A stretch of DNA of 35,008 nucleotides from a virus, in the IMG/VR virus record IMGVR_UViG_3300010331_000008; one strand, given 5' to 3'. The notes beneath the pieces were generated by a model. The model saw nothing but the letters and a program-made list of their open reading frames with translations, was not told where the DNA came from and ran no database searches. Shown piece after piece: positions 4,877-35,008 of this stretch; the stretch's first letter is position 1, and each line of letters opens with the position of its first letter. A program made the translations under genes and the position numbers.

Positions 4877-4883
4877 TAATTTT

Positions 4884-4895
4884 GTGATACCCTAA
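4884..4895 (+). promoter_or_regulatory. late promoter-like motif L1 (GTGATACCCTAA)
   Basis: One of six near-identical intergenic copies, T-rich upstream, located before the tail-fibre gene. Confidence 0.55.
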
Positions 4896-8621: not shown

Positions 8622-8825
8622 ATGACACGATCAAACATGGAAATAAGTTATACTGAGATAAGCCCAGAAGTTTTAGTTAATCGGAATAACGAACTAATCA
8701 CTTTACTTGAAATACCTTGCCATAAAGAACGAGCCGATAGACTTAAACGTGAACTAGCCGAAGTCTCATTTGAAATTATGCAGAGAGTGCGTGCAGGTGA
8801 GCTTGATATTGAGATGACAGACTAG
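8622..8825 (+). CDS. hypothetical protein
   Basis: TAGGAG SD 5 nt before ATG 8622; preferred over the track start at 8604. Confidence 0.5.
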   Translation: MTRSNMEISYTEISPEVLVNRNNELITLLEIPCHKERADRLKRELAEVSFEIMQRVRAGELDIEMTD

Positions 8826-8952
8826 TATAATAGATGTACGCCCTGAAGCTGTAATGCTCTAGGTAATCGGTATCTGACCTGCAGAGATGGTATCGGCAAG
8901 ACTGAGGACAAAGAGGAGTAATTACCTTACAAAAACTCAGGTATAACAATAC

Positions 8953-8987
8953 AAATAAATAAGCCCCATTACGAGGCTTATTTATTT
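8953..8987. terminator. bidirectional intrinsic terminator
   Basis: Perfect 13-bp stem aaataaataagcc / ggcttatttattt with a 9-nt loop. A/T tracts on both sides. Lies between the convergent genes ending at 8825 (+) and 9007 (-). Confidence 0.7.
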
Positions 8988-9006
8988 ACTTGGTATAACT
9001 AGTCTA

Positions 9007-9273
9007 CTATTTGATTATCACGCCACCTGTGAGCTTGTGTGAGGTCGTGGGTGCTATAAACGGTACTAGGTGCAACGCTCCGTCAATCACAAAGACCTGT
9101 TTATGAATATTAGGTTTGCTATATCTAGCTTGGATTCGTTTTAATGAATCGGCTGATAATCTATCAAGTTCTATTTTACGGTTACGTTTCGCTATTACGC
9201 CTAGGTTTAATATCGGACTGAGTGAACGCCCAACATTGTTTATGCGTCGGTCTATATCTGATAGTTGTGTCAT
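9007..9273 (-). CDS. hypothetical 88-aa protein; the only minus-strand gene in the genome
   Basis: AAGAGG SD just upstream of the ATG on the minus strand. Has its own promoter-like sequence and a downstream terminator. I recognised no family. Confidence 0.55.
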   Translation of the reverse strand: MTQLSDIDRRINNVGRSLSPILNLGVIAKRNRKIELDRLSADSLKRIQARYSKPNIHKQVFVIDGALHLVPFIAPTTSHKLTGGVIIK

Positions 9274-9310
9274 ATAACCTCTTTTCTTATTTCTTTTGTT
9301 ATTTTTAGGT

Positions 9311-9340
9311 ACTATAAGCGACCCCTCTTTTTTTGTGTAA
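9311..9340 (-). promoter_or_regulatory. candidate promoter of the minus-strand gene (TTACAC-N18-TATAGT)
   Basis: Reverse complement reads TTACACaaaaaaagaggggtcgctTATAGT, about 40 nt upstream of the start at 9273. Confidence 0.35.
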
Positions 9341-9550
9341 CCGGCTAGTAGAGGAGTAGATAATAAAGCAATACCTGATATTAGGATTACTAGGTAGTCA
9401 GTTTTAATCTTGATCGTCAGTTCGCTGTGCTTTAAGCCTTAAAAGGATATTAAAAAATAGTTTACTAATTAAATTGATTAAATCAGATGTTAAAGTACGT
9501 GATTGTTTACATTCATCAGTTCAATGCAAGCTTTACGATAGCCTAAAACG

Positions 9551-9580
9551 TTGAGCCATTTTAGTAAGTTATTTTATAGT
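9551..9580 (+). promoter_or_regulatory. candidate sigma70-like promoter (TTGAGC-N18-TATAGT)
   Basis: Lies in ORF-free DNA, about 100 nt upstream of the + strand terminator at 9678-9700. Confidence 0.4.
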
Positions 9581-9587
9581 ATCACTT

Positions 9588-9700
9588 ACAGGCAATGGTC
9601 AGCGACTCCTCAATACTATTGCGAATATTGTTCATATGAGTTACTATAGATAGTAATTCGATAAAACTACATTGATTGAGGCCCGAAAGGGTCTTTTTCT
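9588..9700 (+). ncRNA. candidate small RNA of about 113 nt
   Basis: Bounded by the promoter-like element at 9551-9580 and the GAAA-tetraloop terminator. Contains only 5- and 14-codon ORFs with no SD. Confidence 0.35.
9678..9700 (+). terminator. intrinsic terminator (GAGGCCC-GAAA-GGGTCTT followed by a T run)
   Basis: 7-bp stem including G-U pairs, GNRA tetraloop, T5 tract. Same architecture as the post-capsid terminator at 30696. Confidence 0.6.
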
Positions 9701-9831
9701 CTGCTTGTTTATATTCCCAACCTGTTTGTTAATTTCTTTCGATAAAACTAACATTCAGTTACTGACAACTATATACCTATATTGATACGCACGTAAAGTA
9801 CAAAGCATAATTACGTTGTGTATAACTTGCG

Positions 9832-9875
9832 AACAAATAAAAGTAGCCCCTAAACAGTAATGTAATTGGGGCTAC
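9832..9875 (-). terminator. minus-strand intrinsic terminator
   Basis: Perfect 8-bp GC-rich stem GTAGCCCC / GGGGCTAC with a 17-nt loop. On the minus strand it is followed by TTTTATTTGTT. Confidence 0.6.
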
Positions 9876-9991
9876 ACACACTAAGGTGGTTATGTAAGGT
9901 GCTTACAGGCGTGTCCTAAATATCTCTACATCGGGTGTTTCTGTACTAATATTATGGTAATACTTATGGTTGGGTTTTACAAGACAATAAA

Positions 9992-10059
9992 ATAGAACTT
10001 AGCAGACAGTAGATTGGATTAACGATCGCCCTGGGGCAAGAGTTACTGCTAAGTTCTAT
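9992..10059. repeat. perfect 14-bp inverted repeat with a 40-nt spacer
   Basis: atagaacttagcag (9992-10005) pairs with ctgctaagttctat (10046-10059). Followed by (tctatata)x2 on the + strand and by TTTTATTG on the minus strand. Confidence 0.85.
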
Positions 10060-10067
10060 ATATCTAT

Positions 10068-10096
10068 ATATTACCATTTTGAGCCTATAAAATCAA
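10068..10096 (-). promoter_or_regulatory. minus-strand sigma70-type promoter with an extended -10 (TTGATT-N17-TGgTAATAT)
   Basis: Reverse complement of 10061-10100 reads gtgaTTGATTttataggctcaaaaTGgTAATATatagata. Back-to-back with early promoter A. Confidence 0.5.
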
Positions 10097-10109
10097 TCAC
10101 ATAAAAGGC

Positions 10110-10138
10110 TTGCAATATATCAACCATTAGCGTACAAT
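10110..10138 (+). promoter_or_regulatory. early promoter A (TTGCAA-N17-TACAAT with a CATTAGCG spacer block)
   Basis: Exact 17-nt spacing. Shares ccattagcgTACAAT with copies B, C and D. 35 nt upstream of the Rad52-like gene. Confidence 0.65.
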
Positions 10139-10173
10139 TATACCCAGTAGAACAGTAATGAAAGGATTAACAA

Positions 10174-10908
10174 ATGGCACAAGTAAAAGAAATAGCAGAA
10201 CAGTTATCAGAACCGTTTGATCCACAGGATATTGAATGGCGAGTTCAACAGGCTGGTGAAGCCAATGGTAAAAAATGGGCTATGGTTTTAGCCTATATAG
10301 ATAATCGAGCAATCATGGGTAGACTAGATAAAGTATTTGGTATTGCCGGTTGGCAGAACGAATATCAACCGTTACCTGATGGCGGAATAATTTGTGGCAT
10401 TAAAGCTAAAATAGGTGATGAATGGATTGTTAAATATGATGGCGCTGATAAGACTAATATTGAGGCTACTAAAGGTGGGCTTAGCAACGCTATGAAACGT
10501 GCTGGAGCGCAATGGGGTATTGGCCGTTATCTATACGGACTTGAGGCAACATTCGTTAAGCCACAAGACGGCAAAGCACCAGACCACGATAATTACATAT
10601 CTGGCTATAGTAAAGACTTTGGCAAATATTATTTTGAACGCCCACAACTACCTAGCTGGGCATTGCCAAAAGGCGCTAAGGTAGAAGTTACTAAGACCGA
10701 GACTAACCCTGAATGGTCTTATGACGAACGAGACAAGCAATTAAAAGAAATAACAGCCGTCGGTATCCAACTAGGTTACGACATAGCAACACTTGATAAA
10801 AGAATAGCTAAACTAAATAATAGCAATGATGCTAAATCACTATTAACTAACTTTCGTGAGATGATGAAAGCTGAAAAATCTAAAAAAGAGGAAGTACCAT
10901 TCAAATGA
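10174..10908 (+). CDS. Rad52/Rad22-family single-strand annealing protein
   Basis: DIEWRVQQAG...WAMVLAYIDNRAIMGRLDKVFGIAGWQNEY...KGGLSNAMKRAGAQWGIGRYLY matches the conserved core of phage Rad52-like recombinases. Confidence 0.7.
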   Translation: MAQVKEIAEQLSEPFDPQDIEWRVQQAGEANGKKWAMVLAYIDNRAIMGRLDKVFGIAGWQNEYQPLPDGGIICGIKAKIGDEWIVKYDGADKTNIEATKGGLSNAMKRAGAQWGIGRYLYGLEATFVKPQDGKAPDHDNYISGYSKDFGKYYFERPQLPSWALPKGAKVEVTKTETNPEWSYDERDKQLKEITAVGIQLGYDIATLDKRIAKLNNSNDAKSLLTNFREMMKAEKSKKEEVPFK

Positions 10909-11120
10909 ACGACCATCACGACCAAGATTACAACCCAGAGTTAGCACGAGACCTAGCCGAGATGACGCAACCCGACTACCCAGAGCTAAAGATATATAAA
11001 GGTGGCGATATACCACCAGAACTTATCTACATAAATAGTAAGGCTTATTATATTGCTCACGTTACAGACGATGTAGACGGCCAAAGAACTGCTATTTTAG
11101 TAGTATGGTCGCCTTTCTAA
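10905..11120 (+). CDS. hypothetical protein
   Basis: ATGA overlap with the upstream gene. 71 aa. Confidence 0.5.
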   Translation: MNDHHDQDYNPELARDLAEMTQPDYPELKIYKGGDIPPELIYINSKAYYIAHVTDDVDGQRTAILVVWSPF

Positions 11121-11510
11121 ATGGACTTAAAGCAGACCCCAATCGAAGTGCCGGCAACGCTTGAGGGTATTACTCGCAAAAAGGATCGTTCGGTTTCGTT
11201 CCGGTTTAACTCATTACTTGAAGTATCTAACGCCGACTTTGGCGAAATGGATAAACTATTCCAATCAGTCGGCTACCTATTATTTGCCGAACGAAGTTTA
11301 ACTAACGAAGATATACCTGATGAGGAAATAGAGACCGATATATCTAAATCGCAATCAGTCCAATTAAGAGATGCTCTATGGGTACTTTATAAGGCTCGTG
11401 GCAATCGCACCGAGGATAAAGAACTATGGAACATCTTTTATAGAAAGCAAATGCAAGTGTTCAAAGCTAGAGTGCTAGATGAAGTCCACAAACTAGACGA
11501 TACTAACTAA
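11121..11510 (+). CDS. hypothetical protein
   Basis: Starts 1 nt after the previous stop. 129 aa. Confidence 0.5.
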   Translation: MDLKQTPIEVPATLEGITRKKDRSVSFRFNSLLEVSNADFGEMDKLFQSVGYLLFAERSLTNEDIPDEEIETDISKSQSVQLRDALWVLYKARGNRTEDKELWNIFYRKQMQVFKARVLDEVHKLDDTN

Positions 11511-11530
11511 TAGGAGATAAAATAAACAAG

Positions 11531-12715
11531 ATGAATGTATTAAGTTTGTTCGATGGGATGAGTTGTGGTCAAATTGCACTCAGGCAATTAAATATACCGA
11601 TTGAAAAATACTATGCTAGTGAGATAGACAAATATTCTATTCAAATCACACAGAAAAACCACCCTAGCACTATTCAATTAGGTGATATTACAAAGTGGCG
11701 TGAATGGGATATTGACTGGTTAAGTATAGATTTAGTTTTTGGTGGTAGTCCTTGTCAGGGCTTTAGTTTTGCCGGTAAACAGTTAGCCTTTGATGACCCA
11801 CGATCTAAATTATTCTTTGATTTCATTGATATAGTAAATCATGTTAAGCAGCACAACCATAAAGCAAAGTTTCTATTAGAAAATGTAAGAATGAAAAAAG
11901 AATACCTTGATGTTATATCTGAGTACATCGGAGTTCAACCAGTTAAGATTAACTCAGCTCTTGTGTCAGCTCAGAATAGGGTTAGGTATTACTGGACAAA
12001 CATAGCCGAATTGCAACAGCCTGATGACTTAGGTATTTTACTAAAAGACATTATTGAAAGTGGGGATATAACCGAAACAAAGGCTAGAACTATTGACGCT
12101 AACTATTTTAAGGGTGGCAAGATTGGCGGCACTCATCAAAGTTCAAAACGCAACTATCTTGTAACTGGTGGTGCTATTCGTGGACGATATAATCAAGACG
12201 GCAAGACAGAACAGCAACTTGAGGTACAGGGGACGCAACGAGCCAACTCAATTACTACAGTTCAAAAAGATAGCCTATGTATTAAAGTAGGCGAAGCCGA
12301 TATTAAGGGACATGATAGTATTAAGCGAGTTTATAGCCCAGAGGGTAAATCCCCAACATTAACAACAATGGGCGGTGGACACAGAGAACCAAAAATAGCA
12401 GTCTATGAGGCTACTAAAAAAGGGTATGCCGAGGCTGGAGTTGGCGAGGGGTTAGACCTGACATTCCCTAACAGTAAGACTAGGCGTGGTCGTCTAATGC
12501 AATACAAATCAAATTGCTTAACATCTGCTAATTATGAATATGGGATAGTGCAACCAGATATTACTTGGCGTAAATTAACACCACTAGAGTGCGAAAGACT
12601 ACAGACAGTACCCGATGGATATACAGAGGGGGTATCAAATACCCAACGCTATCGTATGCTAGGTAATGGTTGGACAGTTGAAGTAATCAAACATATATTC
12701 AGGAATCTATTATGA
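11531..12715 (+). CDS. DNA (cytosine-5) methyltransferase
   Basis: Motif I LSLFDGMSCG, motif IV GGSPCQGFSFAG, motif VI LLENV, and C-terminal RKLTPLECERLQTVPDGYT and GNGWTV. Confidence 0.9.
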   Translation: MNVLSLFDGMSCGQIALRQLNIPIEKYYASEIDKYSIQITQKNHPSTIQLGDITKWREWDIDWLSIDLVFGGSPCQGFSFAGKQLAFDDPRSKLFFDFIDIVNHVKQHNHKAKFLLENVRMKKEYLDVISEYIGVQPVKINSALVSAQNRVRYYWTNIAELQQPDDLGILLKDIIESGDITETKARTIDANYFKGGKIGGTHQSSKRNYLVTGGAIRGRYNQDGKTEQQLEVQGTQRANSITTVQKDSLCIKVGEADIKGHDSIKRVYSPEGKSPTLTTMGGGHREPKIAVYEATKKGYAEAGVGEGLDLTFPNSKTRRGRLMQYKSNCLTSANYEYGIVQPDITWRKLTPLECERLQTVPDGYTEGVSNTQRYRMLGNGWTVEVIKHIFRNLL

Positions 12716-13212
12716 AAGAGCCTAAATGCAAAATATGTGGCGGCAAACACTACAAAACATTTTGTTCACAAGCCCCTAAAACTCCCATCAAACGTACACC
12801 AATAAAACTAAAGCCTAGTAAGCCTAGACGTAAAAAATCAGACCGAGATAAACTAAAAAAGAAGCTAGAACTGGCCGTTAAAACCTATATCAAACAGCGA
12901 GACAACTACACCTGCCAGCATTGCCATAAAAAAGTTGAAGGCTCTAACTGCCACGCCTCACATATTCTATCAGTGGGCGCACACTCTAATATGCAATTTG
13001 AACCACGTAATATGAAAGTTCTTTGTTTCCATTGTCATCGTCAATTTTGGCATGGCGATCCTGCATTATCTAGCCACTGGTACATACAGACGTTCCCAGA
13101 GAATTGGGCATATTTAATAGAGCAATCCAACACAGCATTAAAGATACCAACCTGCGAACTACAAGATAGAATTGACTATTATACCGAGCTTGTGGATAAC
13201 TCTACTATCTAA
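12712..13212 (+). CDS. NinG/Rap-like recombination endonuclease (zinc-binding, HNH-like)
   Basis: N-terminal CKICGGKH...FCS. The block YIKQRDNYTCQHCHKKVEGSNCHASHILSVGAHSNMQFEPRNMKVLCFHCH follows the lambda NinG pattern. ATGA overlap with the methyltransferase gene. Confidence 0.55.
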   Translation: MKEPKCKICGGKHYKTFCSQAPKTPIKRTPIKLKPSKPRRKKSDRDKLKKKLELAVKTYIKQRDNYTCQHCHKKVEGSNCHASHILSVGAHSNMQFEPRNMKVLCFHCHRQFWHGDPALSSHWYIQTFPENWAYLIEQSNTALKIPTCELQDRIDYYTELVDNSTI

Positions 13213-15628: not shown

Positions 15629-16321
15629 ATGAGTAAAGAATATATTAAGTTCAAACTAACAGACGAGTTCATAACATTTTGGGGCGGTAAGTTATTCCGC
15701 ATTGAGGCAACCGCATCATTTGGTGATGTAGAAAAAGGCGACAAGGGCGGTTATGTAGAAAAAGCAGAAAACCTATCTAATGAGGGCGATGCTTGGGTCT
15801 CTGGCAATGCTCAGGTCTATGGCAATGCTCGGGTCTCTGGCGATGCTCAGGTCTCTGGAGATGCTCAGGTCTCTGGAGATGCTCGGGTCTCTGGCAATGC
15901 TTGGGTCTATGGCAATGCTCAGGTCTATGGCAATGCTCGGGTCTCTGGCGATGCTCAGGTCTCTGGAGATGCTCAGGTCTCTGGAGATGCTCGGGTCTCT
16001 GGAGATGCTCAGGTCTCTGGAGATGCTCGGGTCTCTGGCAATGCTTGGGTCTATGGCAATGCTCAGGTCTATGGCAATGCTTGGGTCTATGGCGATGCTC
16101 GGGTCTCTGCAAAGAAAGCATTTAATAAAGGTTGGTTCATCGGCGGTGATGATACAGAAAAGATTACCAGAATTGAAGACCAAATGGGTAATGATTACTG
16201 GAAAACACAATATGTATTGGGTGACTACGAGATTAACGATATTGAACCAGCAGAAGAAAAAGCTACCCACCCTAAAGAAATTGTGATTGACGGTGCAACT
16301 TATATTCTGAAGGATAAATAA
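15629..16321 (+). CDS. hexapeptide-repeat (left-handed beta-helix-like) protein
   Basis: Eighteen consecutive G-[DN]-A-x-V-[SY] hexads flanked by non-repetitive N- and C-terminal regions. AAGGGG SD. Confidence 0.6.
   Translation: MSKEYIKFKLTDEFITFWGGKLFRIEATASFGDVEKGDKGGYVEKAENLSNEGDAWVSGNAQVYGNARVSGDAQVSGDAQVSGDARVSGNAWVYGNAQVYGNARVSGDAQVSGDAQVSGDARVSGDAQVSGDARVSGNAWVYGNAQVYGNAWVYGDARVSAKKAFNKGWFIGGDDTEKITRIEDQMGNDYWKTQYVLGDYEINDIEPAEEKATHPKEIVIDGATYILKDK
15785..16108 (+). repeat. 18 x 18-bp tandem coding repeat
   Basis: Units such as ggcaatgctcaggtctat and ggcgatgctcaggtctct. Units 2-6 recur as units 8-12, a 108-bp higher-order repeat. Confidence 0.9.
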
Positions 16322-16678: not shown

Positions 16679-17056
16679 ATGAGTGATGACGATATTCTAA
16701 ATAAAGGTGGGACACAAGACGATGTTGATGAATATGCACGACAAAATGGTGCAGAACTAACTAAAGAAGATTTTATCACCCCTGTTATGACAGACGATAT
16801 AGATAAACGTTTAGATAAGATACTAAAAACATTTGCTATCACTATAAATGGCGACAGTAAGACAGGTTTCACATTAGACACATCAGACGCCAAGCAAGCT
16901 ATTTTACTAGCTCATCAAAAAGAAGTAGAGCGGATAATCGGGGAAAATGTAGAATTATCTGGCAAAAACGATATAGCAATCAACTTGCAGATTACTATAG
17001 AAAACAGTTTACGAACCGAACAACTTCTACGAGCTAATATAAAAGAAGATCGATAG
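16679..17056 (+). CDS. hypothetical protein
   Basis: ATG at 16679 lies 6 nt into the track ORF, which uses GTG 16673. GAGG upstream. Confidence 0.5.
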   Translation: MSDDDILNKGGTQDDVDEYARQNGAELTKEDFITPVMTDDIDKRLDKILKTFAITINGDSKTGFTLDTSDAKQAILLAHQKEVERIIGENVELSGKNDIAINLQITIENSLRTEQLLRANIKEDR

Positions 17057-17058
17057 GC

Positions 17059-17087
17059 TTGCATATACTCAAGCATTAGCGTACAAT
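17059..17087 (+). promoter_or_regulatory. early promoter B (TTGCAT-N17-TACAAT)
   Basis: ggcTTGCATatactcaagcattagcgTACAAT. The downstream leader (agaaaggattacaaaaATG) resembles that of promoter A. Confidence 0.65.
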
Positions 17088-17120
17088 CTTACTTAGTAAT
17101 AAGTAGAAAGGATTACAAAA

Positions 17121-18172: not shown

Positions 18173-18333
18173 TGATATAATTATAAACAGACACCAACAC
18201 AACAAATACATTCAACTAAAGAGGAGTATTACATTAGTACACTTGAAAAGTTTAACCTGACATTTGAATATGATCTAAATCTAAGAGACGTAAAGAGTCG
18301 AATAAAGAAGCGCACAATCAAGTAACTTAACAT

Positions 18334-18460
18334 CATAAATGGTATCAATAAGGGATAAGGTCAGAGGATGGCGACGACTAATAAGTTGCGGCATGACCCT
18401 TACTCCACATAGGGAATGTACTTATAACTCCAGCTGACCCCCTTACTAATACCATTTATG
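18334..18460 (+). repeat. long imperfect inverted repeat forming a hairpin of about 127 nt
   Basis: Three paired blocks total 24 bp: cataaatggtat / ataccatttatg, taaggg / ccctta, and ggtcag / ctgacc. They enclose a 69-nt apical region. The element ends 1 nt before the -35 of promoter C. Confidence 0.8.
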
Positions 18461-18461
18461 C

Positions 18462-18490
18462 TTGCATATTCCTAAGCATTAGCGTACAAT
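18462..18490 (+). promoter_or_regulatory. early promoter C (TTGCAT-N17-TACAAT)
   Basis: tgcTTGCATattcctaagcattagcgTACAAT. Confidence 0.65.
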
Positions 18491-18547
18491 GTGACTTAGA
18501 TATGAAACGAATATAAAATAATAATCATATCGAAAGCGAGTTATAAA

Positions 18548-22418: not shown

Positions 22419-22432
22419 ATTGACAACCTTTT

Positions 22433-22444
22433 GTGATACCCTAA
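22433..22444 (+). promoter_or_regulatory. late promoter-like motif L3 (GTGATACCCTAA)
   Basis: Ends 6 nt before the portal ATG, with no SD in between. Confidence 0.55.
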
Positions 22445-28511: not shown

Positions 28512-28522
28512 TTTGCTGTTTT

Positions 28523-28534
28523 GTGATACCCTAA
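28523..28534 (+). promoter_or_regulatory. late promoter-like motif L4 (GTGATACCCTAA)
   Basis: Intergenic, upstream of the prohead protease gene. Confidence 0.55.
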
Positions 28535-33077: not shown

Positions 33078-33081
33078 ATCT

Positions 33082-33093
33082 GTGATACCCTAA
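33082..33093 (+). promoter_or_regulatory. late promoter-like motif L5 (GTGATACCCTAA)
   Basis: Ends 6 nt before ATG 33100, with no SD. Confidence 0.55.
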
Positions 33094-34790: not shown

Positions 34791-34798
34791 CTAATTTC

Positions 34799-34810
34799 GT
34801 GATACCCTAA
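34799..34810 (+). promoter_or_regulatory. late promoter-like motif L6 (GTGATACCCTAA)
   Basis: 12 nt upstream of the TMP ATG, with no SD. Confidence 0.55.
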
Positions 34811-34822
34811 ACTTATAAAACT

Positions 34823-35008
34823 ATGAATGATAAAACCCTACAGATTGTAATCAAGGCACAAGACCAAGCCAGTAAAGTTATGTCGCAAGTAGGCGACAGA
34901 ATAGAAGCCGTCGGAAGTAAAATGCGAGACATCGGCAAAAGTATGACCGCAATGGTAACTTTACCGATAGTCGCAGGCTTCGGTTTAGCTATAAAAGCCG
35001 CCTCTGAC
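34823..35008 (+). CDS. tape measure protein, N-terminal part; continues at base 1 of the circular genome
   Basis: ATG 34823 is in frame with the ORF at 1-1419. Bases 34886-35008 duplicate 1-123. Confidence 0.8.
   Translation, partial: MNDKTLQIVIKAQDQASKVMSQVGDRIEAVGSKMRDIGKSMTAMVTLPIVAGFGLAIKAASD
34886..35008 (+). repeat. 123-bp terminal overlap, identical to bases 1-123 (circular closure of the assembly)
   Basis: Direct comparison of both ends: caagtaggcgacagaatagaagcc...aaaagccgcctctgac. Confidence 0.95.

Follow-up and report, generated by a model that had tools for sequence, protein, structure and literature searches.

A gene-poor island in an uncultivated siphovirus-like phage: a candidate leftward control module with a structured RNA matching the first early ribosome-binding site

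The virus record IMGVR_UViG_3300010331_000008 (35,008 nucleotides (nt), all of which were analyzed and are called the window here) contains an almost gene-free interval, positions 8,826 to 10,173, between its late and early genes. Comparison with loci from other uncultivated phages suggests this island is a conserved leftward control module, in which a structured small RNA matching the first early ribosome-binding site is encoded next to an antisense-controlled small protein gene; we place the probability of this at about 0.55. Across the lineages compared, the architecture of the island is conserved, its main hairpin covaries, and the loop of that hairpin is complementary to the first early leader of the same lineage. 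From the sequences we infer that the RNAs are produced, that pairing represses the early gene and that the protein has a role in the module; the whole case rests on computation. An earlier reading of the window, made from its sequence only, had offered an RNA-centered control or immunity locus, an origin region and an anti-defense RNA locus as possibilities. The comparative evidence supports the first of these in its general form, although parts of it had to be revised.

Conserved architecture of the island

The relatives were reached through the one gene-like open reading frame (ORF) of the island, a gene for a basic protein of 88 amino acids (aa) on the minus strand. A word-indexed protein search with this ORF found only itself. 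A full HMMER search of 1.84 billion representatives gave two remote homologues of 69 and 75 aa (E = 8e-7 and 3e-6), and a profile search enlarged the family to six members. The homologue contigs are from other uncultivated phages. With the window they provide five distinct sequences in three lineages for comparison: the window, L022 (to which L028 and L029 are identical), and the trio L024, L031 and L033. At every locus with enough flanking sequence the homologue is an antisense gene, with lysis-side genes on one side and the first early gene on the other, and the DNA upstream of it or of its two-gene operon is free of called genes for 580-780 nt (580-900 nt with the window included).

The lineages share a common order of signals. 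Divergent from the early promoter, a TG-extended promoter precedes a long hairpin by a few nt, and a terminator follows ~220-280 nt further on. Directly after that terminator a promoter faces the small protein gene, and within the leader of that gene are a promoter on the opposite strand and a short intrinsic terminator. A promoter and terminator scanner, run blind on L022 and L024, returned the complete set in L022 and the same set minus the short-RNA promoter in L024. The small-RNA promoter has counterparts with the TG motif a few nt before the hairpin (TAGACT-17-TATAAT in L022, TTGAGT-17-TATAAT in L024), as does the promoter of the protein gene just behind the small-RNA terminator (TTGAAT-17-TATAAT in L022, TTGATT-17-TATAAT in L024). 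For the short rightward RNA the counterparts are TTTGCA-18-TGaTATAAT in L022 and TGtTATAAT in L024. All the hairpins, terminators and promoter-like sites named in the sequence-only reading are present in the window at the positions it gave. The features, from right to left, are as follows.

10110-10138, plus strand: first early promoter TTGCAA-17-TACAAT, back-to-back with the next feature and one of three copies of a 43-nt cassette
10068-10096, minus strand: extended -10 promoter, TTGATT (10096-10091)-17-TGgTAATAT (10076-10068), read from the sequence; it scores 8/12, under the 9/12 cut-off of the scanner
9833-10063, minus strand: predicted structured small RNA of ~230 nt, with a 5' hairpin called P1 (10059-9992), U-rich CUAUUUUAUUG, GCACCU (9902-9897) and a terminator (9875-9832)
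9992-10005/10046-10059, minus strand: perfect 14-base pair (bp) inverted repeat from a repeat search, the P1 stem
9875-9832, minus strand: small-RNA terminator GTAGCCCC...GGGGCTAC plus TTTTATTT, a hairpin with a T-run
9768-9797, minus strand: promoter-like site TTTACG-18-TATAGT for the 88-aa mRNA (scanner)
9274-9761, minus strand: putative long 5' leader of the 88-aa mRNA, from the promoter at 9797-9768 and the matching promoters in L022 and L024
9722-9758, minus strand: hairpin at the 5' end of that leader, from structure comparison, carrying direct repeat copy 2 (9738-9750)
9678-9703, plus strand: terminator of the short rightward RNA, GAGGCCC-GAAA-GGGTCTT plus T-run (hairpin 9678-9695), from the scanner and folding comparison
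9657-9669, plus strand: direct repeat copy 1, TTCGATAAAACTA, an exact 13-nt repeat that makes up the single-stranded 5' portion of the short rightward RNA
9619-9647, plus strand: weaker alternative promoter TTGCGA-17-TACTAT, from which the RNA would begin 3 nt ahead of the direct repeat, an arrangement shared with the relatives
9551-9580, plus strand: promoter-like site TTGAGC-18-TATAGT for the short rightward RNA (scanner)
9339-9311, minus strand: proximal promoter-like site, a possible alternative start for the 88-aa mRNA (scanner)
9007-9273, minus strand: 88-aa basic protein gene, with an AAGAGG box 6 nt before the ATG
8951-8989, both strands: bidirectional intrinsic terminator, a 13-bp perfect inverted repeat (8953-8965/8975-8987) with A/T runs on either side
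8803-8831, plus strand: promoter-like site TTGATA-17-TATAAT across the end of the last late gene; no other sigma-70 match in the region scores as high (11/12)

The bidirectional terminator likely closes the late operon on the plus strand and the mRNA of the 88-aa gene on the minus strand; an equivalent hairpin is found behind the homologous gene in both L022 and L024. Terminator-like sites are enriched in the island (4 against 1.0 +/- 1.1 in shuffles). The promoter at 8803-8831 could yield a plus-strand RNA of ~150 nt ending at the bidirectional terminator, and its membership in the module is uncertain. In the relatives TGnTATAAT boxes directly follow the last late gene, matching its place. 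Folding of the two plus-strand RNA candidates is only modestly better than that of shuffles (z = -2.4), the value for 8838-8995 being z = -2.4.

A predicted, covarying minus-strand RNA

The predicted minus-strand RNA of the window folds far better than shuffled sequences (z = -4.6), and the values across the three lineages are -4.6, -4.0 and -3.45. As MAFFT alone misaligned the lineages, a covariance model was used instead. The model was built from the L024, L031 and L033 RNAs only and run without filters over the whole window, where its top match was 10063-9833 on the minus strand, at full length (19.7 bits, with a rough E-value of about 0.001-0.002 for the 70 kb searched). This interval coincides with the one set by the predicted promoter and terminator. 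On L022 the best match to the same model was the predicted terminator (E = 0.024).

In a four-sequence alignment fitted to the model, 15 base pairs are changed on both sides, compared with 4.8 +/- 1.9 in shuffles (0 of 500 reached this count) and 1-2 in slid controls, and 95.5% of the cells pair. Hairpin P1 contributes strongly, with 10 of its 13 pairs changed on both sides. The P1 stems are AACUUAGCAG, UCUAGCG, CCCCAG and CCACCGG, each above a common AUAG/CUAU base. Downstream of each P1 come a U-rich block, either CUAUUUUAUUG or a similar form (e.g. CUAUUUCUUAUUG), and, further along, an invariant GCACCU. Between L024 and L031 the P1 stems differ by compensatory substitutions, while the loop is identical. 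The RNA is unlikely to be a hidden gene: the window RNA has at least three stops in every frame, and four of the five RNA sequences are stopped in all six frames.

A conserved, covarying RNA in three lineages is thus predicted where the sequence-only reading had listed the minus-strand extended -10 promoter, the 14-bp repeat and the minus-strand terminator. The Rfam search and the alignment for covariation that it had called for gave, respectively, no known family and the conserved structure described above. Rfam searches of the whole window gave no match at the gathering threshold, and the best E-values in the island, 2.2-3.5, all belong to terminator-like chance matches. Scans of IMG/VR with the conserved motifs recovered only the contigs already known.

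Complementarity of the P1 loop to the first early mRNA

In each lineage the large loop of P1 is complementary to the first early mRNA of the same phage, at its leader and Shine-Dalgarno region; in the window this mRNA begins with a Rad52/Erf-like gene. The pairs in the three lineages are as follows.

Window: loop segment GUUAAUCC...UACUGU (10006-10023, minus strand); proposed target ACAGUA...GGAUUAAC, within a region (10152-10176, plus strand) that holds the leader, the Shine-Dalgarno box AAAGGA (10161-10166) and the start codon of the Rad52/Erf-like gene
L022: loop UCAAUCUCC; target GGAGAUUGA
L024, L031 and L033: loop ACAAUCCUUUCA; target UGAAAGGAUU

With the unpaired P1 loop as query, the first early gene ranked first among all translation-initiation regions in each of four genomes (1 of 57, 1 of 29, 1 of 25 and 1 of 21), and shuffled loops matched the target equally well in 0-4 of 2000 trials. 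Cognate loop-target pairs score better than most non-cognate ones; the one close case is the loop of the L024 group, which scores -16.1 on the window target and -19.2 on its own. When all 30-nt windows on both strands were scanned for complementarity to the early leader, the P1 loop ranked first of 23,208 in the window and first of 10,770 in L022.

The sequence-only reading had linked two convergent candidate RNAs with a possible RNA-based regulatory switch. The two candidates do converge, but they do not overlap each other, and the short one would instead run antisense to the 88-aa mRNA in its leader. Nor does the long RNA (10063-9833) overlap the early mRNA, which would start near 10145; ~90 nt with both divergent promoters lie between them. 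The long RNA accordingly appears to act in trans, on the initiation region of the first early gene beyond the divergent promoters.

The early promoter belongs to a 43-nt cassette, GCTTGCA...AGCGTACAAT, present in three copies on the plus strand (10105-10147, 17054-17096 and 18457-18499). Copies 1 and 2 are followed by similar leaders (GAAAGGATTA[A]CAAA). The P1 loop pairs with either of them, though less well with the one behind copy 2 (17054), near 17100 (-14.1 kcal/mol). The loop of the small-RNA terminator (CAUUACUGUU on the RNA, 9853-9865) is also complementary to the early leader AACAGUAAUG (10151-10163), beside the P1-loop site; this match is weak or absent in L022 and L024.

The small protein gene and its putative antisense RNA

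The short rightward RNA, with its end at 9703, would be antisense to the putative leader of the 88-aa mRNA and is the only truly overlapping antisense RNA of the island. Its promoter and terminator unit, which the sequence-only reading had recognized, has a conserved architecture in the relatives: the terminators are in the same place in L022 and L024, and in L024 and L033 the hairpin is retained although its stems are made of entirely different sequence. A direct repeat of 13-15 nt flanks this terminator in all lineages. The repeat sequence is lineage-specific, the spacing is 81, 75 or 69 bp, and one copy forms the 5' tail of the short RNA while the other is in the conserved 5' hairpin of the leader. 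Equivalent leader hairpins (CUGAUUA...UAAUCAG) are present in L022, L024, L031 and L033. Pairing of the direct repeats with the long RNA looked plausible by eye in the window; it is absent in L022 and L024 and was dropped.

The family proteins are basic and hydrophilic, 69-88 aa long, with predicted long helices. The 88-aa protein has no match in Pfam, PHROG, PADLOC or the PDB folds, and no helix-turn-helix, ribbon-helix-helix or other DNA-binding signature was found in it. Structure models were poor from the single sequence (predicted local distance difference test score, pLDDT, 41) and mediocre from six sequences (pLDDT 65), and Foldseek found no match in the PDB. Scans with the protein profile recovered only known contigs from the metagenome collection and nothing from GTDB genomes.

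In the trio a 97-aa partner ORF without a family match precedes the small protein gene in the same operon (L024 7711-8004, L031 4738-5031, L033 751-1044), where it takes up some of the stretch that is leader in the window. Neither the window nor L022 has a remnant of this ORF, a tblastn search against the island being empty.

Genome context

The window is a circular assembly, with positions 1-123 identical to 34886-35008 (an exact 123-nt overlap), giving a genome of ~34,885 bp. The phage is siphovirus-like; genes for a tape-measure protein, a Dit tail protein, portal, capsid, and the small and large terminase subunits were recognized, and all sizeable genes are on the plus strand. The small terminase belongs to the P22 gp3 type, and the large one has ~50% identity with the large terminases of Lactococcus P335-group, Streptococcus thermophilus and Fusobacterium phages. 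A Firmicutes-like host is suggested by the promoters, ribosome-binding sites, holin and terminase. The late side, with an r1t-type holin and small genes, stops at 8825, the end of a 73-aa ORF. The early block opens at 10174 with the gene for the Rad52/Erf-like annealing protein, and genes for a C5 methylase and a NinG/HNH protein come next.

Between these blocks the 88-aa ORF is the only gene-like one, as the sequence-only reading had it. The plus-strand gap of 896 nt (9278-10173) is the largest of the genome, the runner-up having 375 nt, and at 34-36% GC against ~41% for the genome the island is also its most AT-rich part. Six-frame stop-to-stop segments of the island gave no match in PHROGs, and searches for tRNAs and for CRISPR-repeat-like or tRNA-like features found none. 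Among the ORFs scanned, which left out some small ones, no integrase or repressor was recognized, in agreement with the sequence-only reading; nor were helix-turn-helix repressor or Cro-like domains found in the island or the scanned ORFs, or an antirepressor homologue among the latter.

That reading had also noted that the island lies where temperate phages keep their immunity region. In phages of the P335 type the lysogeny module usually follows the lysis genes, and the layout of Lactococcus phage ul36, a relative by its large terminase, confirms the point. Between the start of its record and its Erf-like annealing-protein gene, ul36 carries a leftward integrase and CI-like repressor and a rightward antirepressor. 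As this stretch corresponds to the position of the island, the island occupies the slot of a lysogeny module without such proteins.

The source samples come from anaerobic digesters. The 88-aa gene is present in seventeen metagenome contigs, and all those retrieved are 100% identical to the window over the island. No DNA match was found among 50,697 cultured phage records in near and distant modes. Scans of IMG/VR with protein patterns found no syntenic relative of the island, the Rad52 pattern giving only the non-syntenic L001 and L002. The Rad52-based relatives L001, L002 and L015-L018 were set aside, as they have other genome contexts and no match to the RNA model. Several of the short metagenome contigs span just the island, with starts exactly at 8761 and ends between 10051 and 10098; a coverage step, strain junctions or assembly of the same low-coverage samples by different pipelines could be the cause.

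Discussion

Under the proposed mechanism the module would be transcribed leftward, against the other genes of the phage, as two units. The first would be the ~230-nt RNA (10063 to 9833), whose extended -10 promoter stands back-to-back with that of the early block. Its large P1 loop would expose the complement of the short early leader and Shine-Dalgarno box (10152-10171), with a lesser match at the leader near 17100, and pairing would stop ribosomes from loading on the early operon. Early translation could thereby be shut down as the RNA builds up, or be blocked on an incoming genome of the same type. The second unit would be the 88-aa gene, with its own promoter just behind the small-RNA terminator and a long leader. 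The short rightward RNA would act as antisense to this leader, in which the 13-nt direct repeat may provide it a second complementary site, in the 5' hairpin. The terminator of the short RNA would also keep rightward transcription out of the first unit.

Several points weigh against this interpretation. Promoter-like hexamers are not enriched in the island (9 against 7.9 +/- 2.7 in shuffles), and the promoters of the window itself are weak matches to the consensus, at 8-9 of 12; with matches not above chance, the promoters are credible only through their conservation in relatives. The comparison set is small, as three of the five sequences are close kin, and plain BLAST between lineages finds no significant similarity in the non-coding part. 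The covariance-model E-values are rough, L022 matches the model at the terminator only, and the pairs changed on both sides were counted in just four sequences on an alignment fitted to the model structure. L022 also has one frame open through the RNA region, though the gene caller called nothing there. Loops that resemble an anti-Shine-Dalgarno sequence can easily match ribosome-binding sites, and in the scan of 30-nt windows the P1 loops of L024 and L031 are in the top 0.5% (ranks 40 and 33) but are not the best of the locus. As the target hypothesis was formed after the complementarity had been noticed, the rankings serve as a test of it and not as its discovery. Moreover, the middle domain and the invariant GCACCU have no consistent predicted target, and the 88-aa protein is an orphan without an assigned function.

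Control of phage genes by antisense RNA is known from a few classic Gram-negative models, P1/P7 c4, P22 sar, lambda OOP and P4 CI. In phages P1 and P7, the small c4 RNA exposes loops complementary to an early-function mRNA downstream, at its ribosome-binding region, and related phages differ by matched changes in loop and target. The c4 RNA is cut from the same transcript as its target (icd-ant) and controls an antirepressor operon. The island resembles c4 in the complementarity of a loop to a Shine-Dalgarno region and leader, with the first early gene ranked first in four genomes. Unlike c4, its RNA has its own divergent promoter and intrinsic terminator, is ~3 times longer and would target a recombinase-led early operon, and the two are unrelated in sequence and in Rfam.

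The leader of the 88-aa gene has a parallel in the par locus of plasmid pAD1 (RNA I and RNA II), where convergent promoters produce a short terminated RNA and a longer mRNA, the short RNA being complementary to the mRNA leader, and direct repeats are dispersed pairing sites. The 13-15-nt direct repeats of the island are likewise found in the 5' tail of the short RNA and the 5' hairpin of the leader in all lineages. However, the two island RNAs share no terminator, no replication or toxin function is evident, and the family protein, without a PADLOC match, is basic and hydrophilic rather than a hydrophobic membrane toxin like Fst. Another antisense RNA listed as controlling a plasmid leader is RNAIII of pIP501 (PMC5415839). 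P22 sar and lambda OOP are small antisense RNAs that tune genes of the lysis-lysogeny decision (PMC5415839). They overlap their targets on the opposite strand, which the long RNA of the island does not and the short rightward RNA does, at the 88-aa leader. The class of mechanism is thus already known from P1/P7 c4, P22 sar, lambda OOP (PMC5415839) and pAD1 par. What is new is the RNA family, its divergent placement by the early promoter, the link to an antisense-controlled orphan protein, and the occurrence in these uncultivated phages.

If the control module is real, it would add a new, sequence-unrelated family of antisense RNAs in uncultivated siphoviruses, in the slot of the missing lysogeny module, and would combine in an unusual way a trans-acting RNA against a ribosome-binding site with an antisense-controlled orphan protein. 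It would be a candidate for how small phages without recognizable regulators time or silence their early genes. At its core the prediction is a match of 8 nt in the loop with 8 nt in the leader, for which natural covarying variants are at hand. It was a single full-HMMER match to an orphan 88-aa ORF that opened the comparative analysis of this non-coding region.

A wider role for the module as an RNA-based replacement of CI/Cro can be imagined, though we think it quite unlikely. The leftward small RNA would then be the immunity factor and block early translation from the phage's own and from incoming genomes, and the pairing of loop and leader would determine its specificity. The counter-arm would consist of the short rightward RNA and the 88-aa protein, which might help by binding RNA or regulate its own expression at the direct repeats. 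Such a phage might have a bistable or carrier-state lifestyle without integrase or repressor, and its relatives might form heteroimmunity groups. The island does resemble the CI/Cro module of P335 phages and ul36 in genome position and in its divergent promoters upstream of the annealing-protein gene. It differs in that no integrase, helix-turn-helix repressor, Cro or antirepressor was found and that its leftward products would be an RNA and an orphan protein.

Two other explanations, each possible but not likely, give the non-coding DNA a different purpose. The island might be a replication origin whose structured transcript primes or activates replication, as in lactococcal c2-type phages, in which the ORF-free late/early junction makes a structured non-coding transcript, PE1-T, from an early-region promoter, and this transcript is thought to start replication (PMC7150918). 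The island is the largest non-coding and most AT-rich stretch of the genome, at the same junction, and no replication-initiation gene was recognized among the early ORFs scanned; the likeness to PE1-T (PMC7150918) is positional and compositional. However, PE1-T runs in the early direction, whereas the island RNA is transcribed away from the early genes, carries an anti-ribosome-binding-site loop and stops at an intrinsic terminator like a discrete small RNA. An iteron array is lacking, the repeats having two copies only, and an origin leaves the lineage-matched complementarity to the early ribosome-binding site unexplained. The origin and control roles are not mutually exclusive and could coexist. 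The repeats and palindromes could instead be DNA operators, with the 88-aa or another early protein binding the direct repeats at the two convergent promoters and the repeated sequence on either side of the divergent ones, and the RNAs being by-products. The direct repeats differ across lineages yet match within each, like co-evolving operator-repressor pairs, and each copy is just downstream of one of two convergent starts. On DNA, moreover, the match of P1 loop and leader is a direct repeat flanking the divergent promoters, and the small protein, which always accompanies the element, is basic. Against operators, this protein has none of the DNA-binding signatures looked for, and the spacings of 81, 75 and 69 bp lose helical phase. 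In each repeat pair, one copy is in a conserved hairpin loop and the other coincides with a Shine-Dalgarno box or with the 5' tail of a short terminated RNA, a logic of RNA-RNA recognition, and the compensatory changes in the P1 stems of L024 and L031 around an identical loop also speak for RNA.

An anti-defense function for the RNA, as a decoy for an RNA-guided or RNA-sensing system of the host, or a function in manipulating host mRNAs, is improbable. It would account for a middle domain and GCACCU without a phage target, and the role of a family in neither Rfam nor the cultured phages is unconstrained. The match to the early leader would then be incidental, however, while it is top-ranked in two lineages, and the RNA has no CRISPR-repeat-like or tRNA-like feature. 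Least probable, in our view, is that the island has no regulatory role and is either the decaying remnant of a lost lysogeny module or a terminal repeat or packaging end that has collapsed. Its location in the lysogeny slot fits a remnant, and the shared contig ends at 8761 and 10051-10098 could hint at a coverage step, e.g. from a terminal repeat. Architecture and hairpins are nevertheless conserved with compensatory changes in three lineages, and there are no pseudogene traces. The sequence-only reading had allowed that the ORF-free state might be decay; the six frames without a PHROGs match and the absence of a 97-aa ORF remnant argue otherwise. The contig ends may stem from the same few low-coverage samples put through several assembly pipelines. 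Terminases of the gp3 family go with headful packaging, and the P22 gp3-type small subunit and P335-group-like large subunit suggest that this phage packages by headful, without fixed ends; the terminal-repeat idea was downgraded to a minor alternative for this reason.

Other features of the genome

A 13-mer, TGTGATACCCTAA, which is inside a longer TTTTGTGATACCCTAA motif, occurs five times on the plus strand (4883-4895, 22432-22444, 28522-28534, 33081-33093 and 34798-34810), where 0.06 occurrences are expected by chance. All copies are in short gaps just upstream of late genes, making the 13-mer a candidate phage-specific late promoter or activator site. The second-largest gene-free gap (18173-18547, plus strand) has an inverted repeat with 21-nt arms (18334-18354/18440-18460) and a structured interior of 85 nt (z = -4.1). 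This hairpin (18334-18460) abuts the third copy of the early promoter, with a TGATATAAT box upstream (18173-18181), and the gap may encode a second structured RNA.

In L022, Cpn10- and Cpn60-like (GroES/GroEL-type) genes are located beside lysis and tail genes (11050-12838). Within the ORF at 15629-16321 of the window, positions 15731-16162 hold at least 16 tandem 18-bp repeats that encode a hexapeptide-repeat beta-solenoid with YdcK- and bactofilin-like Pfam matches. The contig behind L011 aligns to this array in several shifted registers, which may reflect a different number of repeats.

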